Source: an uncultured Planctomycetota bacterium (GTDB taxonomy: Bacteria > Planctomycetota > Planctomycetia > Isosphaerales > Isosphaeraceae). From it: a stretch of DNA of 64,000 bases. Both the position numbers and the translations under genes were made by a program. The notes under the pieces are model-generated. The model worked only from the letters and a program-made list of their open reading frames with translations, did no database searches and was not told the DNA's origin. Below, one piece after another: positions 26,940 through 63,351 of the stretch (within the stretch, counting starts at the first letter, position 1; every line of letters starts with the position of its first letter). The DNA lies in NCBI GenBank assembly GCA_963823665.1, contig CAWGMQ010000004.1, positions 1,120,001-1,184,000 of the forward strand, written 5' to 3'.

Positions 26940-26974
26940 TTGGAAGCAAGAAACTTGACGAAGGACCAATGTTC

Positions 26975-27547: not shown

Positions 27548-27553
27548 CCTACT
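27526..27553 (-). repeat. GTAG-family REP-like element, copy 2 (overlaps the stop of BMC-P 3)
   Basis: gaatcgtcaggctaaagcctgacctact. Confidence 0.8.
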
Positions 27554-27564
27554 GAGAGGAACAC

Positions 27565-28557: not shown

Positions 28558-28571
28558 GAGGAGATCACGCT

Positions 28572-29669: not shown

Positions 29670-29673
29670 CGCC

Positions 29674-33072: not shown

Positions 33073-33324
33073 CGATCATTCGAGGACGATCCGCACGAGT
33101 ATCAGCCGCAGATCTCCCGCCAGCAACAGCCGGTGTTTTCACCGCATCTCTAACATGAGCTTGGTCGTAATCGGATCTTTCGAGTGGTAGACTTAGCGGG
33201 TATTATTGATGTGCCTCTGACCGAGCCTATCCACGTTCAACATTCTCTTCAACAAACCTCGCAGTCGTGAGGACAGACGTTCTTCGAGGTTTCCACTTGC
33301 GCCCGCCGGTGGGAATTGAGTTTC

Positions 33325-36300
33325 ATGGGCCCACGAACCCCTTGCCCACATCCGACACGTCTCCGGCAATTCTTGCGTGACCGCGCCCAAATCCCCGCGA
33401 CCGATCGCGTGCGGGAGCATCTCGCGCAGTGTGAATCCTGTCGATTGGTGGTCGCCGGCCTTGAGTCCGAATCCGAAGAGGGGACTCAGCAGACACTCGT
33501 CGACCTTGGCCTGGCTCAATCGGGCCAGACGGTTTTCTTCCACGATCCCAGGAAAGACGCTCGGCGGCACGAAGACGGTCCGGCGGTCACGACGATCCAG
33601 ATCACGGTCGACTCGGCCAAAGAGCCAACCGATGTTGATTCAGGATTTGACGTATCGAGCGCGACCAAGCAAGCGAGCCTGCGAATCACATCCGATACCA
33701 TGTCGACCTGCGAGATCGCGCCCGGTGGCGAGTCGGACACCGGGTCGTTCGTGTTGCCGAATACTCCAACCCTGAGCGACTCAGGTCCGGCTGGCACAAT
33801 CGAGTCCGATTCGATCACGACGTGCGAAATCGTTCCGGGTGGCGGTGCGGACTCGGGGTCGTTCGAATTGCAGGGCACGCCCGAGGTACCCAGCGCCTTC
33901 TCGGAAACATGTGTGCTCGAGACCGGCACGCGTTCGAGCCAGACCGGCCGATCCGACCAACGGTTTGCGCCGACTTTGTTCGACTCCAAGTCAGATGCGG
34001 TTTCCAGCCCGGCCAAGCTCGATAACGTGAGTGTTCCCGGTTACGACCTTCTGGAGGAGCTCGGGCGGGGCGGCATGGGCGTGGTGTACAAGGCCCGCGA
34101 TCGGCGGCTGCAGCGGCTGGTTGCGCTCAAGATGGTGCTGGCCGGCGCGCACGTGGGCGCGGCGGGGCTGGCGCGGTTTCGTGCCGAGGCCGAAGCTGTT
34201 GCGAAGCTCTCCCATGCGAACATCGTGCAAATCTACGAGACCGGCGAGCACGAAGGCCGGCCGTATTTCTCACTCGAGCTGGTTGACGGAGGCAGCCTCG
34301 AGCAGCGGATTCTCGAGAGCCCGGCCACCCCGCTAGCAGCCGCGGCGTTCGTCGAGACGCTGGCGCGTACCATGGCGGTGGCGCATGAGCGCGGGATTGT
34401 CCATCGCGATCTCAAACCGGCGAATATCCTGCTGGCGAAGATGGGCAGCGGGTCGTCAATTGTGAAGAGCCGGGATTCTGACTCGCATACTCTACCCGCG
34501 GACCACTGGTCACGAAGCACGATTCCCAAGATCGCGGACTTTGGTCTGGCCAAGCAGGTGGACGACGATTCGAGCCAGACCAAGAGCGGGACGATCATGG
34601 GCACGCCCAGTTACATGGCGCCCGAGCAGGCGGCGGGAAAGAACCGGGAAATAGGGCCGGGAGCCGACATCTACTCACTCGGAGCGATCCTGTATGAAAT
34701 GCTGGTTGGCCGGCCGCCGTTCAAGGCAGGCAATCCGATCGACACGATTCGCCAGGTCATCGAGCAAGAGCCGGTGCCACCCCGCCAGCTCGAGCCGCGG
34801 GTGCCGCACGACCTGGAGACGATCTGCCTGAAATGTCTGGAGAAGGAGCCCGCGCGCCGATTCGCCACGGCGCTTGACCTGGCGGACGACTTGCGTCGCT
34901 TCGTTCTAGGCGACCCGATTCACGCCCGACCGACGCCGACATGGGAACGCGCCTGGAAATGGGGAAAACGCCGGCCGCTCGCCGTGGCACTTGTGGGGGT
35001 GATCGCTCTGGGGGCACTGAGCACCGTGCTGTTCATTGTCTGGCACAACGGCGTGTTGCAAACCAAGCTCGACGTTGCATTGACGGAAGAGCGGCAGGCG
35101 CGCAGCGTGAGCTCGACGCGCGCGAGGAGCAACGGCTGACGCTCGTGCAGCAAGGGGGGCAGAAGCTCTTCGACAGCGCCCGGGTCGCGGCGGCGGCCGG
35201 CGATTGGCCTCGCGCTCGAGTTGACCTCGAGAAGGCGCTCACCACGATCGGCGGCGATTCCCGGCTTGCATCACTCAAGGAGCCCGCTGTCGCCCTGCTC
35301 AAGCGTGCGGAGCAGGAACTGCGAATCGAAGCCGATCGACGGTCGTCCCGGGCCCGATTTCAATCGTTCGTCGGGTTGCGCGACGAGGCCCAGTTTCTGG
35401 GCACGCTCTACACCGGCATGGACTTGGCCGCCAACCTGCAAGCCGCGCGCACCTCCGTCCATAAGGCCCTGGCAGTCTACGGTGTCGTGGCCGGGGAGGA
35501 AGCTCGACCCAAGTTGGACGCCTACTTGAGCGAGGCGCAGCAGGCCGAGATCCTGGCGGATTGGTCACAACTTCTGTTGATTCTTGCCGAGACCGAAGCC
35601 CAGTCCACGTCCAAGGAGAAGCCGCTCGAAAAGGAACAGTACCTGCGTAAAGCTTTGAGCTACCTCGAGCAGGCGCGGCGGTTGGGAGCGCCCCTCCGGG
35701 CTTTGCACCTGCGGCGGGCACGCTACCTGAACCTGCTCGGCGACACCAAAGGGGCGGCCCGCGACCAACAGGCGGCCCAAGCTGCTGCTGTCGACGACGT
35801 GTTCGATCACTTCCTGATGGCGGACGAGCTCTATCGCCGGGAACAGTTCGCCGAGGCGATCAAGGAGTTTGATCGCGTACTCGAGCGCAAGCCCGGCCAT
35901 TTTTGGGCGCAGTACCTGAACGCGCTTTGTCTCTTGCGGCAACAGCGACCTGCCGAGGCGCGGGCGCTCTTGAGCGCGTGTCTTGCGCAGCGATCTGATT
36001 TTGTCTGGCTTTATCTGCTGCGCGGCTTTGCCCACCAAGAGCTCCAGGCATGGGCCGCTGCCGATTCCGACTTCGAGCGCGCCTCGAAACTCGCCCTCGA
36101 TGAAAACGCTCGCTATGTTCTCCTGGTCAATCGCGGAGTCTTACGCGTCCGAAGCGACCGAAGCGACGAGGCCATCACCGATCTCAAGGCCGCGATCGCA
36201 CTCAAGCCGGGCGCCTACCAGGCATACGTGAATCTGGCTCAAGCGTACCGCCGACAGAATAAGCTTGAACTGGCACTCGATCAATTGAATCGCGCCCTCA

Positions 36301-37157
36301 AGCTCGAGCCTGGTCTGGCCCACCTCTACCGTCTGCGAGCACGGCTTCATCTCGCACGCGATGAAGCCGATCTCGCCTTGACCAACCTCGACCGGGCGAT
36401 CGAGCTCGAACATGACGGCAGCCCCTACGAGGTTGACGACAATATCGAGCGTGGACGTCTGCTTTTGCGCAGCGGCAAGCACGCGCAGGCGCTCGCTTCA
36501 TTCGACGCTGCTCTGGCCTTGCGGGCGGATGATCCGGCCGGCCAGCGCCTTCGTGCGGAGGCCCTGTTTCGGTTGGGCCGATTCCACGACGTGGTCGAGG
36601 CGTTCGACGGCTATCTTGAAAATGGCAAGCCGCTCGAGTCGGTCTATCGCGGCCGCGGACTGGCGCGCTCAGAGCTGGGCCAGTACCCCGGCGCAATCGA
36701 TGATTTCACGAAAGCGCTCGAGCTGCACCCGACCTCGGCCGTGCAGGCGTATCGCGGCTGGACTTACCTGGTCACCGACGCGCCGAAGCTCGCCCTGCGC
36801 GACTTCGAGCTGGCCATCGAGCTCGATCCGAAGAATGCCGACGCCTACAACGGCCGTGGCTTCGCCCGCGCCAAGCTGGGCCGACACCGTGAGGCTGCGC
36901 AGGACGTCGCGCAAGCACTGAGCCTCGGTCCGCCGTCTGCTCGCTTGCTTTACAATGGCGCGCGGGCTCTCGCCCAGTGCCCTAACCCGCACCCACGCCG
37001 TGCGGTGGAGTTGATCAAACAGGCCCTGAGCTCGCTTCCCGCCGAAAAGCGCCGCGACTTCTGGACCGCACACATCGCCAAAGATGCGGCTTTCGCCGCG
37101 CTGCGCAATCAACCGTCGTTCACCAAGCTCGAATTCGAGCTGTCCGGAGCGAACTGA
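33325..37157 (+). CDS. Ser/Thr kinase-TM-TPR protein, copy A (1-nt deletion near 35102)
   Basis: [57 protein letters not shown] array in 34941..37157. The frameshift is resolved by alignment to copy B. Confidence 0.92.
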
Positions 37158-37160
37158 TTC

Positions 37161-40100
37161 ATGCCTCTTCGAGCAAGAGCCATGCGCCGAGTCAGCCCCT
37201 GGCATCGCCTGGCCGAGTTCCGGCTGCCCGACGGCGACTGGCTCGAGCATCGCACTCTGCTCGCGGCCAGTCCGTTGAGCTCAGCCGTGCCGCTGCACTT
37301 CGGCCTGTTCGACGACGCAACGGAGTCGCACTTCCTGTCCACTCCCGGCGAGTTCGACTTATACTCTCTTGCGCTTCAAAGCGGTGACACGGTTTACTCG
37401 AGCATCGACGCCCAGAATTCCGGCAGCACATTGACCAGCCTCCTGCGAGTCTTCGATTCTAGCGGAACTGCGCTGGCGCTTGACAACCAGGAGGGGGGCG
37501 ACCCGCAACTGACCTTCCAGGCAGCGACCGCCGGCACTTACTACATCGGCGTCAGCAGCGCGCCTGACGACGACTACAATCCGCTCTTCTCAAGCAGCGG
37601 CTCCCCAGGTGGCAGCACGGGCCGTTACACCCTCGACGTAAGGCGCACGAGCGGGCCGCTCATGCCGGATCTGACCGGGAGCTCGTTCCGGACGGGGCTC
37701 GACATGGCCGCCCCCGGCGAGAGTGTCCCTGTCAGCTTCACTGTCCAGAACCGAGGCGCCGCCGACCCCGGCAACTTTCGGGTTCAGGTGCTCATCGCCC
37801 CGAACAACCTCTTCGACAGTTCGGCCCAAGTGCTCGCGACGTTCACGCGCAGTCAGTTGGTCGCCGACGCGACGGGCCGGAGCTTCTCGTCGCCGGCGGG
37901 TTTTGCGGTCACGGTGCCCGCCGGCTGGGCAATAGGGCCTGCCGACCTCGGCCTGCGCATCGTGGCCGACCCGGCGGTGCCCGAAGCCGGCCTGTACGAC
38001 AAGAGCGGCGTCCATCGCGGTTCAGACTGGGAGTTCTTGACAGTCGTCACCGCCAACTCCGGCGGTGCAGCCGATTTGTCCGCGATCGACGCCGGGTTGT
38101 ACACGGAGACGCTGGGCACGCTCAGGAGCGCGAGCCCTGTTTCCGCCTACTCCTTCACGGTGAGCAGCGCCCTGGGCATCGGCGAGATCAAGGCGGAAGC
38201 CAGCGCCACGAGCGGCGCCCTGGAGCCGCGCCTCACGCTCTCGGGAGCGACAGGCCAGGTGTTGATCCAATCCGATAGCGGCCTGATCGTCCAGACGCTC
38301 GAGCCCGGAACGTACTTGCTGAGCGTCTCAGAGGAAGCGGGCAACGGGGGCTACCGGCTCACGACGGCCTACACCCAGATCGCCGCCGTGCCGTTTTCGC
38401 CACTTCCGTCGGGCGCGGGAACCGACTCGGTCGCGGTTGGGGACTTGACCGGCGATGGATTTCAGGATGTAGTCACCGCCAATCGGATAGGTGACACGGT
38501 CAGCGTGTTTCTCAGCAACGGCGACGGGACATTCCAGCCCCCCGAGACGTACGGCGTCGGCGACCGCGTGTGGCGCGTGACGATTGCCGACGCCACGGGC
38601 AACGGGAAGCTCGATATCCTCACCGCCAACAAGGGCTCGAACACGATCAGCATCCTTCTGAACAACGGTGACGGCACGTTCGAGCCCCAGTTCACGCTTC
38701 CCACCGGCACCCGCCCTGGTGACGTGACGGTGGCCGACTTGAACGGGGATGGCATCCCGGACCTGGTCGTGTCCAACTATGCCGATGACACGATCTGGAT
38801 CTATCTGGGCGAAGGGGATGACAAGTTCGAGCCCGCGGAAGTCTACGCCACCGACCAGGGTGGCTTCGCCGGCCCAGTCCAGGTCGCGGTTGCCGACTTG
38901 ACCGGGGACGGAGTACCCGACCTGATCTACGCTGACTACGTCACCGGCAACGTCGCCGTCCGGCTGGGCAATGGCGACGGCACGTTCGGGCCTGAGACGA
39001 CCTATCCCACCGCAGCGGGCAGCCACGATCTCGCGGCAGTGGACTTGACCGGCAACGGCAAGATCGACCTGGTTACCGTTAACGCGGTCGCCAATAGCGT
39101 GAGCGTGCTCCTGGGCAACGGCGACGGCACGTTTCTTCCCGAGACGGTTTATCCTGTCGGCACAAACCCGTATTCGCTCGCGATCGCCGAGCTGAATGGT
39201 GACGGCACACCCGACATCGTCGTCAACAACCGGGGCGGTAATACGGTGAGCGTGCTTCTGGGCAACGGCGACGGCACGTTCGAGCCCCAGGAAACCTATC
39301 CCACCGGCACGACGCCGCGCTCGGTCGCCGCGGGCCAGCTCGTCCCGGGCGGTCCGGTCGACATCGTCACCGCCAATCTGGGCGACGACACCGCGAGCAT
39401 CCTCCTGGGCAGGGGTGACGGCACGTTCTCCTTCGGCGCCGAGCAAACAGCCCCCGCCGCGCCACTGGCTCCGTTCCAGGTCGTCGTGGCTGACTTGAAC
39501 GGCGACGGCATCCCCGACATCGTCACGGCGAACAGGCCCGAGAGCAGCGTGAGCGTGCTTCTGGGCAACCGCGACGGATCATTTCAAACCAAGGAGACCT
39601 ACCCTACGGGCGAAGGCCCGTTCTCGGTTGCGGTGGCTGACCTGACCGGCGACGGCATTCCCGACATCCTCACGGCGAACTACGAAAGCGCGACCGTCAG
39701 CGTGCTGCTGGGCAACGGTGACGGCACGTTCCAGCCTTACTTCAACCTTCCCGCCGGCAGCGACCCTTATGACGTCAAGGTCGCCGATTTACGAGGCGAC
39801 GGCAAGGAAGACATCATCGTCACCAACAAGAACGATAACGACGTCGGCGTGATGCTGGGCAACGGGAATGGCACGTTCCAGCCGATGGTGACCTACCCGG
39901 TCGCGTCCGGCCCTTACGTAGTCGTGGTGGACGACCTCACCGGCAACGGAATTCCCGACCTGGTCGTCAGCCATTTCAGTGCCAATGTGGTTGACGTGCT
40001 CATGGGCAACGGTAATGGCACATTTCAACCCGCGCTCGAGTTTCCCGTCGGATCGCACCCGTATGGGCTCGCGGTGGCCGATCTTACCGGCGACGGCTTG

Positions 40101-43100
40101 TCCGACATCGTCACGTCCGACTATAAAGACAACGAAGTCAGCGTCCTGTTGAACGAGGGCGTCAGTCCCACAACTCACCGAATTGAATTCGGCCCACCGC
40201 AGGATTACACCGTGGGCAAGGGCCCCAACGAGGTGCAGGTCGCAGACTTGACCGGCGACGGCATCTCCGACATCGTCACGGCCAACTACGGCAGCGACAC
40301 AGTGAGCGTGCTCTTGGGCAACGGCAACGGCACGTTCCGGCCACAGCAGACCTTCCCCGCTGGCAGCGGCCCCGCCTCCCTGGCCATTGCCGACATGACC
40401 GGCAACGGCAAGCTCGACCTAGTCGTCGGCAACCGCAATGCCAGCACCGTCAGCGTGCTCTATGGCAATGGCAACGGCACATTCTCTTCGCCGCTAACCA
40501 TCGGCGCAGGCGAACGGAACTACTCGGTGGCCGTTGCCGACTTGACGGACGACGGTGATCTCGACGTGATCACCACCAGCGCGCTCAAGAACACGTTGAC
40601 CGTGCAGCTCGGCAACGGCGACGGCACGTTCGGGCCGGCCCGGACGATCCCGGTCGGACTCGGGCCCACATCGGTGGCCGTGGCCGATTTCAACGGCGAC
40701 GGCCGGCCCGACCTCGTGACGACCAACTCCGAGGGCGACTCGGTGAGCGTGCTCCTGGGCAACGGCGACGGCAGCTTCAGCGTGCAGCAGACCTACCCGG
40801 TCGGCGACAGCCCACGCGCCGTCGCGGTCGCCGACCTGACCGGCGACGGCATCGAAGACCTGGTTGTCGCCAACTACAACGACAATACCGTCAGCGTGCT
40901 GCTCGGCAGGGGGGACGGCACCTTCCTGCCGCAGGAGGTCTTCCCCGTCGGCGACAAACCATATTCGGTCGCGCTGGCCGATTTGACCGGCGACGGCCGC
41001 GACGACATCATCATCGCCAATTCCGCCAGCGACACCGTCAGCGTGCTGATGAATCTGGGCGGTACCAGCAACCACGTCAACTTCGCGCCCCAGATCACGC
41101 TGGCCACGGGCCGCGACCCGGTCTCCGTGGCGGTCGCCGACTTATACGGCGACGGCACGCCGGACATCATCACGGCAAATGCCTTCGACAACACGGTGAG
41201 CGTGATCGCCCAGAACGCCCAAAGAGCGTTCCAGCCGCAACAGACCTTCCAAGTCGGCTCGCGCCCCTACTCGGTGGCCGCGTCCGACTTGACCGGCGAC
41301 GGCGAGCTCGACATCATCACCGCGAACTACGGCGGTGACAACGTGAGCGTTCTCCTGAACAACGGCGATGATTCGTTTCTGAGCCAGCAGACTTTCGCCA
41401 CCGAGCTCGCGCCGTCCAGACGGTGGTGGCCGACGTCAACGGCGACGGCCGGCCCGACCTCGTCACCGCCAGCAACCACGACAGCGCGATCGGCGTCCTA
41501 CTGGGCAAGGGCAATGGTACCTTCGAGCCGGCACCCGCCGGCACCGGCGTCGGGCTATCCGACACGCCGTTCCTGGCTGATTTCAATGGCAGCGGGAACG
41601 ACGGCAGTGTCGTCCTGGATCGGTCGGGAGAAATCCTCTATCGCGCGGGGATCCCAGGCGACCCCGGCACATTCGCAACTCCGGTGGTCCTCAATCCCGG
41701 CCGCCCGGCGCGCGCGATCACGGTCTTGCAGATCGGTTCTCAATACGCCGTCGCGGCCGCCGATACCCACTTCGACCCGACGCTCTCAATCAATCAATTT
41801 ATCTTTACGGTTTCGATCTACACGGTCAGCGCCAGCGGGCAGGTGAGCCGGCGCACGGCGTTCGCAACCCCGGATTTGCCCACGAGCCTCGCCGTGGAAG
41901 ACCTCACTGGAAACGGACTCGACGACTTGGTCGCGGCCAACGCGCTCGACAACAGCGTCACGATCGCCCTCCAAACTGGAACGGGACTCTTCGCAGCACC
42001 CATGACTGTGCCCGCCGGTGTCGCGCCGTCTGACATCGCCTTTGGCGACTTCACCAGCAACGGGCTGCCGGACATCGTCGTCGCTGATCAATCCTCGGGC
42101 GATGTGACTGTTCTCTTGAATTCGCCCACGCACACGTTCACGCAGTCGCTGCGTTTCCGCGCCAGCACAGGGCTTTACGGACTCGAGACCACTTCGGACA
42201 ATCCCACCGTCAGCTCGTTCACTGAGACGGTCAGCGTTGTGGCTGGAGATTTCACGGGCGACGACGATCTCGTCGTCGTTAATCAAGACACGCATAGCTT
42301 CACCCTCTTGGTTGGCGACGGCAACGGCGGCTTTGCCAATCCTACCCTGGCGCTTTCGACCTCGACGAGTGATGGTTCAATCATCAACGAACGCCCCGGT
42401 GCGATCGTGGCGGGTGACTTCAGCCGCGACGGCAATCTGGATCTGGCCGTGCTGATGGAGGATACCGGCCTAGTCTGGATTTATTCCGGGAACGGCGACG
42501 GCACGTTCCGCCATACGTTCAGCATTCCCGTCGGCGATGAAGCGACCGGCTTATCCGTGGTTCCGGGCAACGGGCCGGGCCTCTTTGACCTGCTGGTCGG
42601 CAACGGCTATGGTGATGTGCTGATCCTGGAAGGCAAGGGGGATGGGACGTTTCAGATCCAGGGAAGTCGCGTATCACTCTCGGTCGTGCCCAATTTGCTC
42701 GGGCCGGGCCAGGCCGGAGTGTTGGTCGGCAATCAGCAGAACAACCGGGTCACGATCCAGGCGCCGTCGAGCAATGGCACGCAGTACACGCCGGTGCAGA
42801 CGCTCGGCGCCTCATCGTCGTCGGCCGAGGCGCTGGCGCCCGGCGACGTTCAGTGGGCATACCTCGACGAGGGAGCGCCGTTGCCCGATGCGATCGTGGT
42901 GAGCAGCGGGTCGAACGCCGTGGTAGTCTATCGCACGCTGTCGGTCACGAACGGCGTGCCGACGTTTGCGCCGTCGCCGGAAACCTACTTCGTCGGCACC
43001 GACCCGGTCAGCGTGACCGTGACCGATGTGAACGGAGACGGCATTCCCGACATGTTGATCGCCGACCAGGGCAGCAACGACGTCTCGGTGTTGTTCGGCT

Positions 43101-44560
43101 CATACGACGCCCGGGGCGATTGGGTGGGCGTCGCCGGCCCGCGCCTGAAATCCGGCGGCGATGGCCCGATCGCCGTGACCGTGGAGGACTTGAGCTACAA
43201 CGGTTTTCCAGATCTCGCCGTCTTCAACGGCAACAGTGGCACGGTCATCGAGCTGCCCGGTGTCGGCGAAGGGTTCTTCGACGACCAGAATCCGCGCACA
43301 TTGATCAACTTCGGCAGCGCGCTGGTGCAGCCGCCCACGTTCGTGGGCAACACCGGTTTGGGATACGGCGTGACGGCGGGCGGCGACCTTGTACGCTTCA
43401 ACCTTTCGTCAGCCGGCGCGGGAACGTCTGTCGCGTATTCGGGCCAGCAGGTCGTCGCCGCACAGGCCGTTGCCAGCGGTCAGGTGCTAGTGGCGCTCGC
43501 CGACGGCGGCGTCGATCTTCTGCAGCCGCAAGGCAACGCTCTGACGGTCGAGTCGGTCTTGCAGGCGCAGGGGGGCGTGCCGGCCTTGCCCAGCGCGATC
43601 GAAGTCGTGAACAAGCCCGGCGGGCAGCTCAATGTCCTGGTCAGCAGCGAGGGCTCGGACAACATCTTCGTGTTCTCCGAGGTGGCGGCCTCAGAGGAAG
43701 GCGGCGGGGCTCTCCCGGGCGGTTCGTCGCCACTAGTTTTGAACTCCATACAAAACCCGGTGCTCTCAAGCGCGACCGCGAGCGTGACATCCGCATTGAC
43801 GACGAGCGCGATCGCGACGAGCGCCTCCGCGACGACGGCGAGCACAAGCACGTCAACCTCGACGAGCTCGGCCACCGTGTCATCGACGGCCACGTCGTCC
43901 GTCGGGTTGTCTCTGGGTGGGTTCTCCTCACTCGGCAATCGTTCCGCGCTGGGAAGCGGCGAGACCGTGCTCGTTCCGGTCGAGGGCAACACCTATATCA
44001 GCGTACCCATTCTCGATCTCGGCTCTGGGAATGATGACGAAGACGGTGTCGGCGAGCGGCGCATGCCCTGGCTCTCCAGCAAGTACAATTTCAGCGACAC
44101 CTCTGCCTTGACGCGGTTTGTGATCGGTCTTGATCAGGCGCTGCGCGGATACCGTGGTGTTGATGAATCTCCCGTGTTCGGCGGCCCCGGCGCACTCAAT
44201 GATCCATGGAACGAGGATTTATTCCATCAGCATCTCCCTGTTTTGCCGCCGGTTCACGGCACTGGCGGCGACGACCCGCAGGCCATGCTGCCCGAGCTGC
44301 AGCCGCACACGCGCGGCGTTCGGGCCCGGCTCCGGGCCGAGGGGAGCGATCGCCCAGATGATCCGCCCGCAAGACCTGCGACCCCCACGGGCGCCGGATT
44401 CATGGCTCTGGCCAGCCTGATCGTTGCGATGCGGCGACCATCGGCCAGGGCCCGGCCGGCTTGGCGGAAACTCGAGCGCACCAATCTCCCGGTGGGGCCG
44501 AAGGAGATGTTCGCGCGGCGACCACAGCCCGTTCCGGCTTTTCGCGAGTTCAAGCGATGA
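37161..44560 (+). CDS. Giant FG-GAP/VCBS repeat exported protein, copy A (~2466 aa; 1-nt deletion near 41414)
   Basis: WLEHRTLLA motif, PPC/CARDB-like N-terminal domains, many ADLxGDGxxD...VSVLLGNGDGTF repeats; continues in 41423..44560. Confidence 0.9.
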
Positions 44561-45079
44561 GCAATGCCCGTGGCTCGGTGGCCCAGACGGCCGCGAGTGA
44601 ACCTTGGGTTAAGGTGACCGGCTCGCCGCGTTTGTGGAACTGGCTGGCTGAGCGGCGAGTGATTGCCGTCGGCGAGCCTTGATCGCTCTGAAGCCGGGTC
44701 GGCCTGCGTTCTGGACCTGATCACCGACTGAGCTAGCACTGGGTCGAGCCGATGAATTCGTCGATTTTCGCCTTACTGAATAGGGGATGCGCCTTGCGTG
44801 CTCCGGGAGCGCGGTTCGCGCTGTTCATTCCTGGCCGCTCAAAGGGCCAAGGAACGGCGGACGGGCGAGGGAGATTGCCCGAAAAGGCCGTTTGTTGCGA
44901 TTAATCAACATAAGACTCGTCGTAATCGGATCTTTCGTGTGGTCGATTTAAAGGGTATTATTGATGTGGCTTCGACCGAGCCTATCTACGTTCAAAGCAC
45001 GCGTCGACAAACCTCGCAGTCCTGAGGACAGACGTTCTTCGAGGCGTCCACTTGCGCCCGCCGGTGGGAATTGAGTTTC

Positions 45080-48000
45080 ATGGGCCCACGAACCCCTTGC
45101 CCACATCCGACACGGCTCCGGCAATTCTTGCGTGATCGGGCCCAATCCCCCGCGACCGATCGCGTACAGGAGCATCTCGCGCAGTGTGAATCTTGCCGTT
45201 TGGTGGTTGCCGGGCGTGAGAACCGAATCCGGAGAGGGGACTCAGCAGACACTCGTCTACCTTAGCCTGGCTCAATCGGAGCAGGCGGGTTTCTTCCACG
45301 ATCCCACGAAAGAAGTTCGACTGAGAACCGACGGTCCGGCGGTCACGACGATCCAGATCACGGTCGACTCGGCCAAAGAGCTAACCGATGTTGATTCAGG
45401 ATTTGACGTATCGAGCGCGACCAAGCAAGCGCGCCCGCGAATCACATCCGATTCCATGTCGACCTGCGAGATCGCGCCCGGTGGCGAGTCGGACACCGGG
45501 TCGTTCGTGTTGCCGCAAGCCCCCACTCTGAGCGACTCAGGTCCGCCTGGTACGATCGAGTCCGATTCGATGACGACATGCGAGATTCTGCCGGGCGGCG
45601 GCGCTGGCAGCGGGTCGTTCGTGATGGCTGGGACGCCGGATGAACCCAACGCTTTCTCGGAAACATGTGTGCTCGAGCCGGGCACGCGTTCGAGCCAGGC
45701 GGGCGGATCCGACTTTCGGTTTTCGCCCACGCTGTATGACTCCAAGTCAGACGCGGATTCGAGGCGGGGAAAGTTCGATCACGTCGGCGTTCCAGGTTAC
45801 GACATCCTGGAGGAGCTCGGGCGGGGCGGCATGGGCGTGGTGTACAAGGCCCGCGATCGGCGGCTGCAGCGGCTGGTTGCGCTCAAGATGGTGCTGGCCG
45901 GCGCGCACGTGGGCGCGGTTGGGCTGGCGAGGTTCCGTGCCGAGGCGGAAGCTGTTGCGAAGCTCTCGCATGCCAACATCGTCCAGATCTACGAGAACCG
46001 GCGAGCACGAAGGCCGGCCGTATTTCTCGCTCGAGCTGGTTGAGGGAGGGAGCCTCGAGCAGCGGATTCTGGAGAGCCCGGCCACCCCGCGAGCAGCCGC
46101 GGCGTTCGTCGAGACGCTGGCGCATACGATGGCGGTGGCGCATGAGCGCGGCATTGTCCATCGCGACCTCAAGCCGGCGAACATCCTGCTGGCGAAGATG
46201 GGCAGCGGGTCGTCGATCGTGAAGAACCGGGATTCTGATTCGCATACTCTACCGGCGGACCACTGGTCACGCAGTACGATTCCCAAGATCGCGGACTTTG
46301 GCCTGGCCAAGCAGGTGGACGACGATTCGAGCCAGACCAAGAGCGGCACGATCATGGGCACGCCCAGTTACATGGCGCCCGAACAGGCGGCGGGAAAGAT
46401 CCGGGAAATAGGGCCGGGAGCCGACATCTATTCACTCGGGGCGATCCTGTACGAGATGCTGGTTGGCCGGCCGCCGTTCAAGGCAGGCAATCCGATCGAC
46501 ACGATTCGCCAGGTCATCGAGCAAGAGCCGGTGTCGCCCCGGCAGCTCGAGCCGCGGGTGCCGCACGACCTGGAGACGATCTGCCTGAAATGTCTGGAGA
46601 AGGAGCCCGCGCGCCGATTCGCCACGGCGCTTGATCTGGCCGACGACTTGCGTCGCTTCGTTCTAGGCGACCCGATTCACGCCCGACCGACGCCAACATG
46701 GGAACGTGCCTGGAAATGGGGAAAGCGCCGGCCGATGGCTGTGGCGCTTCTGGGCGTGATCGCGCTGGGGGCACTGAGCACCGTGCTTTTCATTGTCTGG
46801 CACAACGGCGTGCTGCAGACCAAGCTCGACGTCGCATTGAAGGAAGAACGGCAGGCGAGGCAGCGTGAGCTCGACGCGCGCGAGGAGCAACGGCTGACGC
46901 TCGTGCAGCAAGGGGGGCAGAAGCTCTTCGACAGCGCCCGGGTCGCGGCGGCGACCGGCGATTGGCCTCGCGCTCGAGTTGACCTCGAGAAGACACTCAC
47001 GACGATCGGGGGCGAGCCACGGCTTCAATCACTCAAGGAGCACGCGGGGGCGCTGCTCAAACAGGTGGAGCAGGAATTGCGTGTGGAGTCTGATCGGCGG
47101 GAGTCCCGGGGCCGGTTGCAGTCGTTCGTCGGCCTGCGCGACGAGGCTCAGTTCCTGGGCACTCTGTACACCGGCATGGACCTGACTGCAAACCTGCAAG
47201 CCGCGCGTGCTTCGGCGCGGAAGGCGCTGGCCGTTTACGCGGTCGTACCCGGAGAGGAGGGTCGACCCAAGCTCGACGCCTACCTGAGTGCTTCCGAGCA
47301 GAAAGAAATCCAGGCGGATTGCTCGCAGCTTCTTTTGATCCTTGCGGAGACTGAAGCTCAGTCGGCTTCCACCGGGAAGCCGCTGGAAAAGGAACCGTAT
47401 CTTTGCAGAGCGCTCGGCTACCTGGAAGAGGCGCGGCGACATGGAGCGCCGGTACGTGCTTTTCACCTGCGGCGGGCGCGCTACCTTCACATGCTCGGCG
47501 ACAACCAGGAGGCAGCCCGCGACGAGCAGAAGGCCCAGACTGCTCCCCTGGCCGATGTCTTTGATCACTTCCTGATCGCGGACGAGCTTTATCGCCGGGA
47601 ACAGTTCGGTGAGGCGATCAAGGAGTTCGATCGGGTTCTTGAGAGCAAGCCGGGCCATTTCTGGGCACAATACTTGAATGCGCTGTGCCTGTTGCGCCAG
47701 CAGCGGCCTGCCGAGGCGCGGGCACTGCTCAGCGCCTGCCTGGCTGCTCGATCTGACTTCGTCTGGCTCTACTTGCTACGCGGCTTCGCTCACCAGGAGC
47801 TGCAGTTATGGGCGGCGGCCGATTCCGATTTCCAGCATGCCTCGCAAATGGCCCTCGACGAGAACGCTCGCTATGTGCTTCTGGTCAATCGCGGCGTTTT
47901 GCGCGTCCGGACCGAGCGAATCGACGATGCGATTGCCGATCTGAAGGCAGCGATCGCGCTCAAGCCGAGCGCGTACCAGGCGTACGTGAACCTGGCCCAA

Positions 48001-48915
48001 GCGTACCGCCGGCAGGGCAAGCTCGACCTTGCGCTCGAACAATTGCATCGTGCCGCGGTACTCGAGCCGGGTCTGGCTCATCTTTATCGGCTGCAATCGC
48101 GGCTCCATGTGGAGCGCGACGAACCGGATCTCGCCCTTAAGAATCTTGACGAGGCGATCAAGCGCGAGGCAGCGAATTCTCCCTACCAGGTCGACGACTA
48201 CATCGAGCGCGGACGTCTGCTCTTGCGCACCGAGAAGCACAGCCAGGCTCTTGCATCATTCGATGCAGCGCTGGCGTTGCGCAAAGATCATTCGCTGGGC
48301 CAACGGCTTCGTGCGGAGGCCTTGTTCCGGCTGGGGCGTTTTGCGGAAGTGATCGCTGGATTTGACCGCTACCTGGAGACGGGGAAACCGCTCGAGTCAG
48401 TCTATCGCGGCCGCGGGCTGGCACGGAGCGAGCTGGGCCAATACCCTGGCGCGATCGAAGATTTCACGAAGGCGCTCGAGCTGGACCCGACGTCGGACGT
48501 GCAAGCCTATCGAGGTTGGACTTATCTTGTGCTGGATGCGCCGAAGCTTGCGCTGCGTGACTTCGAGCTGGCCATCGAGCTTGATCCCAAAAACGCCGAC
48601 GCGTACAACGGCCGAGGATTCGCCCGGGCCAAGCTTGGCCGTTACGCGGAGACCGCTCAGGATGCCATGCAGGCGCTGCGCCGCGGGCCGACGACTCCGC
48701 GATTGCTATACAACGCCGCGCGTGTCTACGCTCAGTGCCCGGGACCCTACCGCGAGCGTGCCCTGGATTTGATCGAGAAAGCGCTCGGCTTGCTTCCCGA
48801 GGAGGAACGTCGCGCCTTCTGGTCGACGCACGTTCGGTCGGATCCGGCCCTGGCGAGCCTGCACCGGCATCCACTGTTCGCCAGACTCTACGACGAACTA
48901 CCCCGGGGGAAGTGA
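45080..48915 (+). CDS. Ser/Thr kinase-TM-TPR protein, copy B (1-nt insertions near 45221 and 45997)
   Basis: Pieces 45071..45265, 45132..46043 and 45640..48915 are colinear with copy A; both copies correct to 1277 aa. Confidence 0.92.
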
Positions 48916-48918
48916 TTC

Positions 48919-51900
48919 ATGGCTCAAAACGTGCGGGCCGTGGATTTGCGCCCTAGACCGAGCCGCAGGTGGTCGTTCCGGACACTGGAGGGAGATTGGC
49001 TCGAACGGCGCACCCTGCTGGCCGCCTCACCGCTCGAGACGGCTGTCCCACTCCACTTCGGCGTTTTCAATGATGCTCAAGTGTCGAATGTTCTCTCGAA
49101 TCCAGAGGAGTTCGACCTGTACTCGCTCTCGCTTCAAGAAGGTCAGACGCTCGACGCCAGCATTGACGCACAAGATGCCGGCAGCGGCTTGACGAGCCTG
49201 CTGCGCGTTTTCAGCTCAAGTGGTGCGCCGCTGGCGCTCGACAACCAGCTCGGGGGCGATCCGCACCTGACCTTTCAGGCTGCAACGACGGGCACGTACT
49301 ATATTGGTGTCAGCAGCGCCCCCAACAATAACTACGATCCGAGGGTGCTCTCCAGCAGCGGCACGGGTGAGACCACCGGGCCGTACCAACTGAACGTCGA
49401 CATCTCGAAGGCCGGTCCGCTCTTACCGGACGTGACAGGCAGTTCATTCCGCACCGGTGCCAGCATGGCGGCACCGGGCGACACGGTCCCGGTCAACTTC
49501 ACGGTCGAGAACGGAGGCGGCGCCGACCCCGGCAACTTCCAGGTGCAGGTGCTGCTGGCCGACAGCAATCTTTTTGGCAGTTCCTCGCTGGTCCTGGCGA
49601 CCTACTCCCGCGCCGACTTGTTGCCGTCCGCGACGGGCGCGAGTTTTCGGCGCGGGCCGGCTCGAGCGTAACGGTGCCGGCCGGGCTCGCTTCAGGGCAA
49701 GAGTACATCGGGTTGCGTATCCTAGCGGACCCTGCGGTGCCGGAGGCCGGCTTGTATGACAAGAGTGGAGTTCATCGCGGCGCGGACTGGGAACCGCTCG
49801 TGATCGTTTCCCGGGCTTCCGCCGGTGTCACCGACCTGTTGCAGGTCGATGCCGGCCTGCGGACGGAAGTCACCGGGACGGCCGGCCCGACTGAGGACGG
49901 CGCGTACACTTTCACGGTGAGCAGCGGCATGGGCACGGGAGAGCTGACCGCCCTGGTCAGTGGAGGTGGGGGCTTGGTCCCGCGCTTGACGTTGTCCAGC
50001 CAGACTGGTCAAACGCTGATCCAGTCTGATAGCGATCAGATTGTCCAGGAGTTGCAACCGGGGATGTACATTCTGAGCGTCTCGGCGGAGTCTGGCCAGG
50101 GTACGTTCGACCTCACCACTTCCTTCACCGCGACGGGCCCACTGCTGGCACCTCTGCCGAATCCGCTTTCAGGGGGATTCGGCCAGGTCAGGCTGGCCAT
50201 GGGCGACCTGACCAACAACGGAATTCTCGATCTAGTCGTTCCCGACCAGCTCGATGACGTCGTTGACATTTACATGGGCAATGGGGATGGCACGTTCCAA
50301 CCGCCGGAAGCGGTTAACGTCGGCGCCGAGCCTCGATTCGTGACCCTGGCGGACCTTAACGGTGACGGCAAACTCGACATCGTCACCTCCAACTGGCGGG
50401 CGGGCACGGTCAGCGTGCTCCTGGGCAATGGCGACGGCACGTTCCAAGCTGCGAAACAATACACGGTCGGACAGAACGATGGTGCAATCGCGGTGGCGGA
50501 TCTTACCGGCGATGGCTTTCCCGACATCGTTACCGCCAACTACCTCGACGACTCGGTGAGTGTCTTGCTGGGCAATGGCGACGGTACTTTTCAGCCACAA
50601 CGAGTGGATCCCGTGGGCCCGGGTCCGATTGGGCTGGTCGTGGCGGACCTCACTGGCGACGGCATCCCAGACATCGTGACCGCGAATACGTTCGGCGCCG
50701 ACATCAGCGTGCTCGTCGGCAACGGCGACGGCACGTTTCAATCCGGGCAAACCTTCCCGGCGGGAGACGGCCCCGGTTCGATCGCCGCGGTCGATCTCAA
50801 CGGGGACGGCAAGCCTGACCTGCTTGTGAGCAACACCTACTACGGCACCGCGAGCGTGCTGCTGGGCAACGGGGATGGCACGTTTCAACCGCCGCAATCT
50901 TACGCCACGGGGCCAGGGCCTGATTGGGTGGTGGCGGCGAACTTTAATGACAGCGGCACTTTCGACCTCGTTGCAGCAAATAGTGACGGCACGCTTAGCC
51001 TGCTGCCGGGCAATGGAAACGGCACTTTCGGGCCGAGGCAAGTTTTACCAGGCAGCTTCCCGGGGGAGCCGGTGGTCGGGGACCTTAACGGCGACGGCAA
51101 GCCCGACATCGCCGTCGCAGGCGGCGGCGCGGTCAGCGTGCTCCTGGGCAATGGAGACGGCACTTTCCAGACGCCGACGCCTGCCACCGCGCCCGCTGTC
51201 GGTCTTATACCGTACGCCGTGACGGTGGCAGACCTCACTGGCGATGGCCGGTCCGACATCATCACGGCCAACATTAACGACGACAGCGTGAGTGTGCTGC
51301 TCCAGAACAGCGACGGAACGTTCGAGACCAGGCAGACTTTCCCGACTGGATCCGGAACGGGCCCGGCGGCTGTGACCGTGGCCGACCTCACGGGTGACGG
51401 CATTTCGGACCTCATCGTCGCCGACTACCACAGCAACAGCGTGAGCGTATTGATGGGCAACGGCGATGGCACCTTCCGGGCACCGCAGATCTTCGCCGTC
51501 GGTGATTCGCCCAACGACGTGACCGTGGCAGACCTGCGTAACGACGGTAAAGAGGACATCATCTCCGCCAACAAGTCCAGCAACACGATCAGCGTGTTGC
51601 TGGGCAACGGCGACGGCATTTTTCAGACGCAAGCCGTTTATGCGGTCGGACCGAGCCCCAGCGCGGTCACGGTGGCGACGCTCACCGATAACGGCATTCC
51701 CGATATCATCACCGCCAACCACCATAACGGGACGGTCAGTGTGCTCTTGGGCAACGGCGACGGCACCTTCAAGCCCGCGAAAACGTACGTGGCGGGCGGG
51801 AGTACGGGAAAGGCCGGTGCAGTGGTGGTGGCGGACCTGACCGGCGACGGCATCTCCGACATCGTCGTGGCCAACAGCGGATCAAACAGCGTGAGCATCT

Positions 51901-54900
51901 TACGCGGTAACGGGGATGGCACCTTCGAGCCTGCGAACGCATACGCGGTTGGCGATGACCCACGCGGGTTGGCGGTGGCAGACTTGAACGTCGATGGCAA
52001 AGAAGACATCGTCACCGCCAATTACGGCGACTCGACGGTCAGCGTGTTGCTGGGCAGCGGGAACGGCTCCTTCGCGCCGCAGCAGACCTACGCGGTCGGA
52101 GCCGGCGCCTACGGAGTTACGGTAGCGGACCTGACCGGCGACGGCAAACCCGACATTGTCACCGCCAACGAAGGCGCCAGCAGCGTCAGCGTGCTCTTGG
52201 GCAATGGCGACGGCACGTTTCAGCCCCAAGAGGTCTTACAACTGGGCGCCAACAAATACTCCGCGACAATTGCGGATATTACCGGTGACGGCAATTCCGA
52301 CATTATCGAAACCAGCCGGCTCCAAGGGACCGTGAGCGTGCAACTGGGCAACGGCGACGGCACGTTCTCGCAGGGAGCGAGCATGGCGGTCGGTGCTGAG
52401 CCGACAGCATCGGCGGTAGCGGACTTGAACGGCGACGGCCGACTGGACATCGTGACGACCAACTCCGGTGACAACACGGTCAGCGTTCTCCTGGGCAACG
52501 GCGACGGCACGTTCCAGCCTGAGCACAAGTACGCCGTCGGGCGCAGCCCGCGCGGGTTGGCGGTGGCCGACCTAGGCGGCGACGGCATTCCCGACATCGT
52601 CGTGGCCAACTACGACGATAACACGGTAAGCGTGCTCGTGGGCAAAGGCGATGGCTCTTTCCAGCCGCAAGTCGTCTATGCCGTCGGAGCCAGGCCCTAC
52701 GCGGTCGCCGTGGCGACGCTCACGGGTGACGGCATTCCCGATATTATCGTCGCTAATTCAGGTGGAGACAGCGTCAGTGTGCTGCTGGGGAGGGGAAACA
52801 GCACCTTTGAGCCCGCGAAAACCTTCACCGTGGGTCGCCAGCCGTTTGCCCTGGCTGTAGCGGACGTGACCGGCGATGGCATCCTCGACATTGTCACCGC
52901 CAACTACGCCGACGACACTGTGAGCGTGCTCCTCGGCGAGGGTGACGGCTCCTTTTTGCCCCAGATGGTTTTCGACACCGGCAAGCACCCATCGTCGGTC
53001 GCTGTGGCGGACGTACTCGGCGACGGATTGCCCGACATCGTGACCGCCGACGCCGGCGATAACACCATCAGCGTGCTGCGGAACAACGGCCGCGGGGCGT
53101 TTCAAGCGCCGCTCTCGTTCGCGACTGACCAGCAACCGCTCCAGACCTTGGTGGCGGACGTCAACGACGACGGACTGCCCGACTTGCTCACCGTGAGCAA
53201 CCACGACAGTGCGATCGGCGTGCTGCTGAATTCGGGGGCCAACAGCTTCGTGTCGGCCTCCTCGGCCGTGGCTGTCGGGATGACCAATACGCCCTTCCTG
53301 GCTGATCTCACAGGTAACGGAATTCTCGACAGTGTCGTCCTGGATCGCTCCGGCAACATCCTGTTCCGCGCGGGACTGGCTGGGGGCAATTCGTTCGCTC
53401 CGCCCGTGATTCTCAACCCCGGCCGGCCGGCACGCGACATCGCGATCGTGAACATCGGATCCGGATTGGCCGTCGCCGCTGACGACGCCAACTTCGATCC
53501 TCTGCTTTCCACCAACCAGTTCGTCTTCACCGTGTCGATTTACAAGGTGAGCGAGCGCAGCAATGTCTCCGTTCTTCAAGATGGACCACGCGCACCGCTG
53601 GGCTCGACTTCCATAATGAGCGAAGACGTGAATGTCAGTCGCACGATCGCCTTCTCTTCGACAGCTCTGCCCACGCGTCTCACGGTCGCCGACCTGACCG
53701 GGAACGGCCTGGACGACCTGATCGCGGCCAACTCCCTGAACAACAGCGTCACCATCGCGTTGCAGACCGCACCGGGAAGATTCGCAGCGCCTATGACGGT
53801 CAGCGTCGGAAACACGCCGTCGGACATCACGATTACGGACTTGAACGGTGATTCCCTACCAGACATCGTGGTGAGCGATCAAGCCTCGGGCGAAGTGACC
53901 GTGCTGCTTGATGATCCAACACATTCCTTCAGCCAGCAGCTCAGGTTCAATGCTGGCACGGAGCCGAGCACGCTGGAGTCGAGTGCAGGCAGTCTGTACC
54001 GGAGCTCAGGCACCCTGCCGGTGAGTGTGGTCGCCGGGGATTTCTTCGGCAATGGCCAGACGGACCTCGTGGTGGTGGATCGCGGCTCGCACGACTTCAC
54101 GGTGCTGCCCGCCGATGGTCACGGCGGCGTCCTCGACCCGTCGCCCGCGCTGACGACCTCAACCAGCGACAGCCTCAACATCAACAACCAACCAGGCGCG
54201 ATGGTGGCCGGCGATTTCAATCGCGACGGCATGCTCGATCTCGCCGTTTTGATGGAAGACACGGGACAGGTCTGGATCTTCGGCGGGCTTGGAAATGGCA
54301 CGTTTCATCATACGTTCAGCATCGCCGTCGGCGACCAGGCCACCGGGCTCTCGGTCGTCCCCGGAAACGGTCCGGGACTACTGAATCTCCTGGTGGGCAA
54401 CAGCTTCGGCGACGTCTTGATCCTTGAGGGCAGGGGCGACGGTACTTTTCAAATACAGGGGAGTCGTGTTTCACTGTCGGTCGTGCCGAATTTGCTTGGC
54501 CAGGGCCAGGCTGGTGTTCTGGTCGGGGACCAGCAGAATGATCGGGTCACGGTCCAGGCGCCGTCGGCAAACGGCAATCAATATGCACCGGTGGCGACGC
54601 TGGCCGGCACGTCCGCCACATCCGAGGAGCTGGCGCCCGGCGACGTGCAGTGGGCTTTCCTCGATCAAGGGTCCCCTTATCCCGACGCGATCGTCGTGGG
54701 CACGGGCGGTAACAGCGTGGAGGTCTATCGCACGATTTCCATCACCGACGGCGTGCCCACGTTCGCCAGTTCGCCCGAGACCTACTTCGTCGGAACGGCG
54801 CCGGTCAGCGTCACCGTGGCCGACTCAAACGGCGATGGCATTCCCTACCTGCTGGTCGCCAACGAGGGGAGCAACGACGTCTCCGAGATCTTCGGCTCCT

Positions 54901-56348
54901 ACAACGCGGACGGTGACTGGGTCGGAATTCCAGGGCCGCGTTTGAATTCCGGCGGCGACGGCCCGATCGCGGTGATCGTGGCCGATTTGACCAGCAATTC
55001 CATTCCCGACCTCGCGGTCGTCAACGGCGGCAGCGGTACCGTGACCCTGTTGCCGGGCGTCGGCGGCAATTTCTTTGATGACCAGGATCCCAAAGCCCTG
55101 TTCAACCTCGGCAGCGCCGTGGTCCAGCCACCCGCACTCACGGGCACGAGTGGAGTGGGTTACGCAGTGACGGCCGGAGGAAACCTGGTGCGTTTCGACC
55201 TCGACAATCCCGCCGCCGGCGTCAGCGTGGTGTACGCGGCCGGGCAGGTGGTGGCCGCCCAGGCACTCGCGAACGGTCAAGTCGTGGTTGCACTGGCCGA
55301 CGGAGCCGTAGATCTCATGAACGCGCAAGGGAACAGCCTGAGTGTGGCGTCCGTGCTTCAGGCGCAGGGGGGCGTTCCTGCTTTACCGAGCGCGATCGAC
55401 GTCGTGAGCAAACCGAGCGGTCAGTTCAGTGTCCTGGTAAGCAGCGAGGGTTCCGACAATATCTTCGTGTTCGCCCAGGTGGCCGCGTCACCGGAAGGAG
55501 AAGGCGGCGGAGCTCTCCCGGTGAGTTCATCGCCTCCGGTACTGAATTCGATTTCGACGCCGAGCCTCTCGAGCGCGACCGCGAGTGCAACTTCCGGACT
55601 GACTACAAGCGCGATCACGACGAGCACCTCGACGACGGCGTCGAGTGCAAGCACGTCAACCTCGACCAGCTCAGCCTCGGTTTCATCGACCGCCACCTCG
55701 ACGATCGGCCTCTCGCTAGGCGGCTTCTCGTCGCTAGGCAATCGATCCACCGGAGCGAACGAGAGCACCGTTCTCGTTTCGGTTGAGGGCAACACCTATC
55801 TCAGCGTACCGATTCTCGGCCTCGGCTCCCCTGAAGATGACGAAGGCGGTGTCGGCGAGCGCCGCATCCCCGAGCTTTCCGGCAAGTTCAACTTCGGCGA
55901 CACCTCCCCCTTAACACGGTTCGTGATTGGCCTGGACGAGGCGCTGCAGGGATACCGCGGAACCGATGCGACGCCCGGAGTAGCCGGCCCTGGATCGTTA
56001 AACGATCCTTGGAATGAAGACCTGTTTCATCATCGCCTCCCTGCGTTGCCTCCACCTCCCGACGCGCAGCGCAACGGCCCGTCGGCCATCTTGATCGAAC
56101 CGCAACCAGAGGCGCGAGGCGTTTCGGCCAGGTCAGGCGACGAGCGCAAGGATTATCCGACCGGTTTGGCCTTCCGAGCCGAAGCTCCGAGCGGCGCCGG
56201 ATTTCTGGCGCTGGGGGGAATGATCATTGCGATGTGGCGACGGGCGGCCTGGCGAACACTCGACCGCGCCGACCTCGCACCTCGTCCGAGGCCGATATTC
56301 CGTCGTCGACGGCAGCCGACTGCGCCATCTCGCGAGTTCACGCAATGA
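48919..56348 (+). CDS. Giant FG-GAP/VCBS repeat exported protein, copy B (~2476 aa; frameshift near 49645)
   Basis: 48919..49671 (WLERRTLLA, PPC-like) plus 49674..56348, colinear with copy A. Confidence 0.9.
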
Positions 56349-56591
56349 GCAATGTCGCTGGCTCAGCACGCTTTATTAGCTCGGAGACTCGAGAACCTGC
56401 TTCTTGCTGGTGAGCGTCACGATGTGGCGGGTCAGCCCGAGGCATTACGGCCGATGGCGCTGGAATTCAAGTCGGACGAGATCGGACGTGTGATCGCAAC
56501 TGGAGAGCCGGGATCGCTCTGATGCAGGTCTGCACAGCGCTTTCGATCCGATCCATGGCTCAACTCACCGGAACCACGCCGAATCGCCCTC

Positions 56592-56629: not shown

Positions 56630-56715
56630 GCCGAAGTGGCGGAATTGGCAGACGCGCTAGGTTCAGGTCCTAGTCCCTCTAACGGGGGGTGCAGGTTCAA
56701 CTCCTGTCTTCGGCA
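56630..56715 (+). tRNA. tRNA-Leu (anticodon CAG)
   Basis: GCCGAAG/CTTCGGC acceptor stem, TGGCGGAATTGGCAGACGC D arm, CTAGG-TTCAGGT-CCTAG anticodon arm, long variable arm, GGTTCAACTCC T arm; CCA not encoded. Confidence 0.95.
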
Positions 56716-56724
56716 CTAAAAACC

Positions 56725-59085: not shown

Positions 59086-59358
59086 CCGCGGCGTCCCGAG
59101 CACGACCGACCACGACACGGCACCGAAGATCGCGCGAAGGGAGCGTCGCATCGGGTGTATTTTCGCATGAATTCGCTGTCCGTTCAAATTCACCCGTTTG
59201 CCCTCGCTTATATTCACAGATTCGCATATCCAATCGAAACGCAACGTCGATGGTCCCGCTCCCTCGTGCGCTCGCATCGCACATGAACTCCTCTTCACAT
59301 CTCGCCGCTGAGGACGCAATCGCCTCGCGGCCAACGGCACGGTCCGAGGCCATGAACA

Positions 59359-63320: not shown

Positions 63321-63351
63321 GGTGACAACTCGCATTTGTTTTCACAGCCGC

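Follow-up and report, generated by a model that had tools for sequence, protein, structure and literature searches.

Within a 64,000-nucleotide stretch of the genome of an uncultured planctomycete of the Isosphaeraceae (contig CAWGMQ010000004.1, positions 1,120,001 to 1,184,000; hereafter the window), itself part of a 16.46-Mb genome in 12 contigs, the same two genes are found twice in tandem. The first gene of each unit encodes a membrane Ser/Thr kinase with a tetratricopeptide repeat (TPR) ectodomain and the second a giant exported protein with FG-GAP repeats, here referred to as its partner; together, the two genes are termed the module. A preliminary description of the locus had recognized the two-gene duplication, the identical junction between the genes and their approximate sizes, and these observations stand. 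Positions 33152-38335 and 44907-50089 share 80% nucleotide identity, and positions 41877-44576 and 53668-56364 share 71%; comparison of the units places the junction TGA-TTC-ATG (TGATTCATG) at both 37155-37163 and 48913-48921; and, with insertions and deletions (indels) allowed for, the kinases comprise 1277 amino acids each and the partners ~2466 and ~2476. The 3-nucleotide gap is kept in four of the five orthologous loci shown, and from it kinase and partner look translationally coupled. All features of the two units lie on the plus strand. The region upstream of unit 1 (33152-33324) is ~90% identical to its unit 2 counterpart, and that of unit 2 (44746-45079) corresponds to the sequence preceding the module's only copy at this place in a genome of the same genus (G035). 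Scans for sigma-70 consensus promoters and terminators upstream of both units found none, and no promoter motif was evident in 12 aligned upstream regions of the window's clade.

Kinase 1 (33325-37157) and kinase 2 (45080-48915) have the same architecture: a zf-HC2-like zinc finger (HxxxCxxC), a Hanks-type kinase domain, one transmembrane helix and an all-helical TPR ectodomain. Pfam models matched in the units are Pkinase, TPR, PPC and FG-GAP. Assignment to the Hanks-type Ser/Thr kinases follows from PF00069 (E 4.8e-49), and the catalytic domain of kinase 1 (34042-34866) retains the Gly loop, VAxK, HRD, DFG and APE motifs, all intact. The finger (PF13490) scores 23.5 bits in kinase 2, above the cut-off of 22.2, and 20.8 bits, just under it, in kinase 1; HxxxCxxC was present in 44 of 66 kinases checked. 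The single transmembrane helix (~34978-35046 in kinase 1 and ~46735-46806 in kinase 2) separates the kinase domain from the TPR array, with the basic sequence KWGKRRP on its kinase side followed by a stretch of Kyte-Doolittle hydropathy 2.6. The predicted topology thus has the kinase domain and zinc finger inside the cell and the TPR superhelix in the periplasm. When modeled, the unit 2 ectodomain forms a confident helical stalk and TPR superhelix (predicted local distance difference test, pLDDT, 91.6), the nearest folds to which are the TPR superhelices of SPINDLY and OGT; these superhelices bind peptides. An alignment of the ectodomain (window positions 46828-48912) contains two conserved cysteines in adjacent TPR helices, C287 at 90% or more and C304 invariant, which could form a disulfide that would fit a periplasmic ectodomain.

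Partner 1 (37161-44560) and partner 2 (48919-56348) likewise share one architecture, consisting of an Arg-rich leader with the motif LExRxLL, a PPC domain, FG-GAP repeats, a Ser/Thr linker, a conserved tail and a hydrophobic C-terminal stretch. The FG-GAP repeats match PF13517 and PF01839 and include 16-18 DxxGDGxxD-like loops per partner; the last beta-propeller of partner 2 (~54459-55475) is confidently folded in its model. Pfam matches to TcdB_toxin_midN were rejected as FG-GAP cross-matches, with no stretch passing alone. The tail (43955-44188 in partner 1 and 55746-55988 in partner 2) comprises a hydrophobic peptide, motif 1, and a helix, motif 2 (consensus WxRFVxGLDEAL); in the model of partner 2, all but the motif 2 helix is disordered. 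It is followed by the hydrophobic stretch (17 residues at 44381-44431 in partner 1, Kyte-Doolittle 1.5; 56184-56234 in partner 2, Kyte-Doolittle 1.55) and a basic end, which together form a probable membrane anchor or sorting signal.

Pairing of the kinase with its partner and with sigma factors

The tandem pair is one instance of a family-wide module of soil planctomycetes. Eight kinases of this zinc-finger/kinase/transmembrane/TPR subfamily, as defined by the region following the transmembrane helix, are encoded in the genome, and all eight directly precede, on the same strand, a gene for a protein with an Arg-rich LExRxLL leader. Six of these partners are FG-GAP giants and the other two are frames of 495 and 565 codons with little or no propeller. 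A whole-genome search with a tail profile identified nine genes, the eight partners and one kinase-partner deletion remnant on another contig (C7); the tail is missing from the other FG-GAP giants of the genome.

The preliminary description had named unlinked homologues in other genomes as an observation that would speak against the pairing. Of 161 matches in relatives, 58 were fetched by score and one was dropped (196 bp downstream), leaving 57; the controls came from a list of 150 kinases, of which the first 40 outside the family with a frame of at least 900 amino acids were taken and one was dropped (frame not found), leaving 39. Those relatives that are named belong for the most part to Isosphaeraceae/Isosphaerales or are unplaced Planctomycetota; two near loci are labeled Gemmataceae/Gemmatales by their sources. 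Kinase and partner proved to be linked in 55 of the 57 relatives, the partner being recognized by leader, FG-GAP repeats or tail (49, 42 and 37 loci, respectively); later counts made with the tail profile are partly circular, as the profile contains many of the same loci. A motif 2 profile trained on the eight genes of this genome alone detected 29 of the 57 relatives against none of the 39 controls (10 bits), and three or more FG-GAP repeats were found downstream of 39 of the 57 family kinases against 0/39 for the controls, none of which had any FG-GAP repeat or the tail downstream. Five further genomes contain 25 tail genes, 24 of them located directly after a family kinase and one abutting a module. 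The gene trees of 46 pairs, those with poor coverage or short partners having been left out, broadly agree (Mantel rho 0.71, reached by 0 of 999 shuffles), with 16 of 43 splits shared overall and 13 of 20 strong kinase splits. The subfamily was present in at least 45 of 100 family genomes (E<=1e-40, best 10 candidates per genome) and, outside the family, was detected in none of 300 genomes (E<=1e-60, best three candidates per genome). No description of the kinase-partner pair or of the tail was found in the literature searched, which covered few subscription journals and the ECF supplement only in part.

The constant element of the partner is the C-terminal tail, not the FG-GAP propellers. Partners range from ~480 to more than 5000 amino acids with differing passengers (none, FG-GAP propellers, beta-helix or LamG) and the tail is kept. 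In all partners of the genome it runs in the same order: motif 1 (consensus LVxLxxxSLxLxxTLL; the window's clade has one variant of it), then a linker of low complexity, then motif 2, the hydrophobic stretch and the basic end. The hydrophobic stretch exceeds that of shuffled sequences in 30 of 43 tails and is then followed by a mean of 5.1 Arg/Lys versus 1.6 Asp/Glu residues. None of 31 tails matched Pfam, and the best match of the tail to PDB sequences had an E value of 0.53; it is an unannotated domain with 516 cluster representatives at 50% identity. Its carriers include proteins of Singulisphaera acidiphila, Singulisphaera sp. GP187 and Ch08, and Tundrisphaera lichenicola, and compact modules with a partner of ~500 amino acids occur in cultured Singulisphaera and Tundrisphaera. 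At the other end of the protein, an N-terminus resembling the RRLxxExLExRxLLA leader was matched in 49 of 57 loci by eye and pattern, but the five leaders or proteins tried gave no Pfam (PF07595) or NCBIfam match. The partner had been described at first as an integrin-like surface protein, and FG-GAP propellers with calcium loops are indeed present, but the passenger that carries them is replaceable and two of the eight partners are only ~500 amino acids long.

A close subfamily of extracytoplasmic function (ECF) sigma factors flanks 20 of the 57 modules, all outside the window's clade, and two more on longer stretches, for a total of 22; the sigma gene may be directly downstream, convergent or divergent. 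It is found at four of the six other modules of this genome, and accompanies 21 of 44 finger-bearing kinases versus one of 22 kinases without the finger, the clades not being independent. These sigma factors were recognized through Pfam, a search seeded with the window's own ECF gene (11549-12136) having found nothing; of the models applied, they match only the superfamily model TIGR02937. Since related sigma factors also lie beside other kinases of this genome, the module looks to be derived from a planctomycete kinase-ECF pair. An ECF sigma factor is its likely output, which the preliminary description did not include. In the window's clade a TIGR03032 gene instead follows the partner, in 12 of the 17 loci with a mapped tail, and a remnant of 41 codons (TIGR03032/DUF4915, 44557-44682) lies after unit 1, its start overlapping the stop of partner 1 (ATGA). 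Upstream neighbors vary freely.

Several irregular forms were also encountered. The deletion remnant on contig C7 (L031:4376-9192, minus strand) joins a kinase N-lobe up to HRD straight to the FG-GAP repeats and tail of a close paralogue, and is devoid of transmembrane helix, TPR and leader. P0026 is a 548-residue record fusing the end of a kinase, transmembrane helix, partial TPR and tail in one chain, and in L081 the partner is shortened internally to ~300 codons; both are read as deletions or assembly artifacts. An FG-GAP giant without the tail (L034, contig C10:2244001-2258241, minus strand), with a frame of 5207 amino acids and internal repeats of 2838 bp, is divergent from an unrelated kinase. 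The kinase and sigma repertoire of the genome is very large: all of the 150 scored Pkinase candidates (the best 150 of 542) lie at E<=1e-30, and 51 matches to a kinase-linked ECF profile were obtained.

A candidate trans-envelope receptor and its rivals

The module is real, looks functional and is specific; what it does may be envisaged from its parts. The kinase would span the inner membrane, its catalytic domain and zinc finger facing the cytoplasm and its TPR superhelix the periplasm. The LExRxLL leader would direct export of the partner, and the C-terminal hydrophobic stretch would retain it, bringing the conserved disordered tail beside the TPR. Binding of the tail to the TPR is then postulated, such that the state of the exchangeable outer part, be it binding, tension, folding or cleavage, would switch the kinase, and the kinase in turn would control an ECF sigma factor, encoded next to it in many modules and, judging from gene context, acting in trans for the window copies. 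A disordered region close to the membrane that carries short conserved motifs and faces a TPR groove is what such a binding partner might look like. Complex prediction with the unit 2 TPR ectodomain and its tail scored 0.00 in two runs, with controls not folded, and counts neither for nor against binding. We judge the chances about even that the module is a receptor kinase with a co-encoded partner whose tail engages the periplasmic TPR, the kinase controlling an ECF sigma factor. Its fuller form, a two-chain adhesion receptor in which membrane-tethered surface proteins with freely exchangeable outer parts connect, through a single conserved juxtamembrane tail, to a TPR kinase of their own that governs transcription by the ECF sigma factor, is put forward more tentatively.

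A number of observations weigh against this proposal. The leader pattern also follows six of the 39 control kinases, with four of these leaders looking real, so that placing a kinase beside an exported protein is to some extent common practice among planctomycetes. One clade has a tail that is weak or escapes detection (20 of 57 loci under 25 bits), and the hydrophobicity of the C-terminal stretch is no more than moderate (mean 1.58), 13 of 43 not exceeding shuffled sequences. Pairing is not strictly one to one: at two loci (G083:C61:975458-992029 and G048:C1:1332754-1346905) one kinase precedes two full partners, followed in G083 by an ECF gene. Congruence of the two gene trees is expected from linkage alone, and the kin compared are not independent. 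None of 19 loci of the window's clade has an adjacent ECF gene, though the finger is present. Finally, the flanking sigma factors keep a DAED-like acidic motif (D-A-(D/E)-D in 10 of 10 aligned), so that activation of the EcfP type is not directly transferable.

In a rival scheme the partner would instead be the output: the kinase and ECF sigma factor would sense something else and switch on the neighboring surface protein, and the tail would serve for export or anchoring, perhaps with the TPR as its chaperone. A kinase, a Planc_extracel protein and a TPR have been recorded near ECF217s1 (PMC7826278, accessible text), leader proteins follow some control kinases, and a partner-ECF pair without a kinase of its own lies upstream of the module in G083. 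PEP-CTERM-like C-termini are weak Atlas look-alikes of the tail (score 0.80, a lead only), and a PEP-CTERM-type sorting signal was not recognized by Pfam in any of 31 tails nor in whole partners. A general sorting signal, however, would be expected on other exported proteins, whereas the tail occurs only on kinase-adjacent genes; partners of ~500 residues without any Pfam domain (P0046 and P0058) would be odd for an adhesin output; and kinase and partner look translationally coupled. We consider this scheme less likely than the receptor. More doubtful still is a scheme in which the tail acts after cleavage, a protease cutting the disordered linker so that the passenger is shed and motif 1 or 2 is released to act on the TPR kinase as an agonist peptide. 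Long disordered Ser/Thr-rich linkers do flank the two short conserved motifs, and short forms without a passenger exist, but no conserved protease neighbor was present among the 60 downstream and 60 upstream open reading frames (ORFs) scanned and no cleavage motif was recognized.

In its receptor form, the module has relatives among known systems, from each of which it differs. The planctomycete kinase-associated ECF groups ECF59 (s2) and ECF217 (s1) also place an ECF gene without an anti-sigma factor beside a Ser/Thr kinase with one transmembrane helix, TPR-fused in 20% of ECF59s2, and in ECF217s1 with a Planc_extracel protein nearby; in those groups the kinase gene generally occupies position +1 relative to the sigma gene, whereas here the order kinase-then-partner is fixed and the sigma gene is downstream, convergent, divergent or absent, and the accessible text describes no dedicated partner or tail (PMC7826278). 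PknS-EcfK of Xanthomonas citri and PknT-EcfP of Vibrio parahaemolyticus (ECF43) provide a Hanks kinase with one transmembrane helix and periplasmic TPRs that phosphorylates an ECF sigma factor; the TPR part modulates activity and, in the text available, its ligand is still open (PMC13147305, PMC8999054). PknS differs in having three TPRs and, as far as that account extends, no co-encoded partner (PMC13147305), and ECF43 differs in the absence of the DAED motif (PMC8999054, in part). A phospho-activated sigma factor of the ECF43 type was accordingly rejected for the module: in region 2.2, DAED is not replaced by Ser/Thr in any of the 10 flanking sigma factors aligned, all of which keep the acidic motif. 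The module is neither of this type nor an integrin. It shares FG-GAP repeats with DxxGDGxxD calcium loops with bacterial integrin-alpha-type propellers (PMC3192720, in part), but the propellers are dispensable in the partner family, no integrin appears among the fold matches listed, and in place of integrin alpha proper there are many tandem repeats followed by a disordered tail, with no thigh/calf domain or beta-subunit gene in the window.

Membrane Ser/Thr kinases whose periplasmic part is a TPR or WD40 array are known from Planctomycetota, those with TPRs in very large numbers, and have the same architecture and predicted topology as the window kinases; the text available proposes neither a ligand nor a gene partner for them and contains the terms "adjacent" and "FG-GAP" 0 times (PMC11032199). 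Surface proteins with the RRLxxExLExRxLLA leader similarly have an Arg-rich N-terminus followed by LExRxLL and are often giant, whereas the partners add the conserved tail and C-terminal hydrophobic stretch (PMC8567305, in part). Many giant surface genes are known from planctomycetes (PMC5352709, PMC12673574), and in the accessible portions of these reports neither the ligands of planctomycete TPR kinases nor a signaling role for the giants is described (PMC11032199, PMC5352709, PMC12673574). If correct, the receptor proposal would give the TPR receptor kinases of planctomycetes their first named class of ligand, the module naming a receptor, a sigma factor and, as candidate ligand, a stretch of ~100 residues; its compact versions in cultured genera make the idea directly testable.

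Trans-envelope signaling of a comparable kind is provided by systems of the PpkA-TagR and SigI-RsgI type, in which a membrane kinase or a sigma factor is under the control of an accessory or sensor region outside the cytoplasm. The likeness of the module to these would be one of analogy only.

History and integrity of the tandem copies

The preliminary description held that the two units had diverged by substitution and that both appeared to be maintained. Maintenance is supported by purifying selection in both copies, but divergence is very uneven along the unit. Nucleotide identity between the units is 95% in the kinase domain (97% in amino acids), 76-78% in the TPR part and 60-69% over most of the partner, with the first 2.4 kb of the units 87-95% identical; synonymous divergence (dS) is 0.20 for the kinase versus 1.1-1.3 for the partner. 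The ratio of nonsynonymous to synonymous divergence (dN/dS) is 0.08 in the kinase C-lobe, 0.15 in the tail motifs, 0.16 in the TPR part, 0.18-0.38 in the passenger, 0.41 in the N-terminal part of the kinase and 0.56 after motif 2. Positive selection is not indicated by any of these values, all of which are below 1, and the suggested difference in specificity between the paralogues is not shown. In G035, a single copy is flanked, as the tandem is in the window, by a peptidase S15-family gene and tRNA-Leu; the tRNA-Leu(CAG) of the window (56630-56716, plus strand) thus marks the end of the locus. The G035 copy is nearer to unit 2 in its body (78-86% versus 61-75% over the partner) but over the final 600 columns unit 1 is the closer of the two (80 versus 68%). 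These mosaic affinities, together with the uneven divergence, indicate by sequence comparison that the window tandem is an old duplicate reshaped by recombination, with its kinase domain homogenized and its outer parts diverged. Tandem duplication in itself is ordinary turnover; the pair probably provides two inputs to one output.

Five single-base indels interrupt the four genes: deletions near 35101 in kinase 1 and near 49644 in partner 2, a missing base at 41411 in partner 1, and extra bases at 45221 and 45996 in kinase 2. The base missing at 41411 is present, and the extra base at 45996 absent, in otherwise identical short-read contigs (a single contig each, depth ~2); no listed read difference covered the other three. 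The adjacent aldehyde dehydrogenase gene is likewise split, and the indels are read as assembly errors. Each of the four independent short-read runs contains pieces that match unit 1 at 100% identity and others that match unit 2 equally well, making a merge of two strains during assembly, another objection named beforehand, unlikely; among the read and contig pieces listed none crosses the junction of the two units, the tandem order resting on the 3.08-Mb contig alone. That the copies are decaying pseudogenes, or the tandem such a merge, is accordingly very improbable: the five frameshifts, the single copy in G035, the uncrossed junction and the C7 remnant are outweighed by the two contradicted frameshifts, the split neighboring gene, dN/dS of 0.08-0.56 in all segments, the recovery of both units from every run, and open partner genes of 2459 and 2491 amino acids in the orthologues L052 and L056.

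Other genes in the window

Upstream of the module, a microcompartment locus (21133-30987, plus strand) encodes a DeoR regulator, phosphate propanoyltransferase, acetate kinase and EutN, in addition to the split aldehyde dehydrogenase (near 26039), a class II aldolase and a lactate/malate dehydrogenase (Pfam); we take it to resemble the known planctomycete type. Between 8224 and 16649, the ECF gene at 11549-12136 and kinase/TPR genes on the minus strand are divergent from a gene for a 1403-residue Big_5/dockerin protein, an arrangement like the ECF217s1 context (PMC7826278, accessible text). Two more kinase-TPR genes outside the subfamily are located at 78-2884 (plus strand) and 59295-63335 (minus strand). 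Near-identical tandem repeats of 78 bp are found at 19142-19600, inside an ORF (17671-19947) with no Pfam match, and others of 75 bp at 4574-4725.

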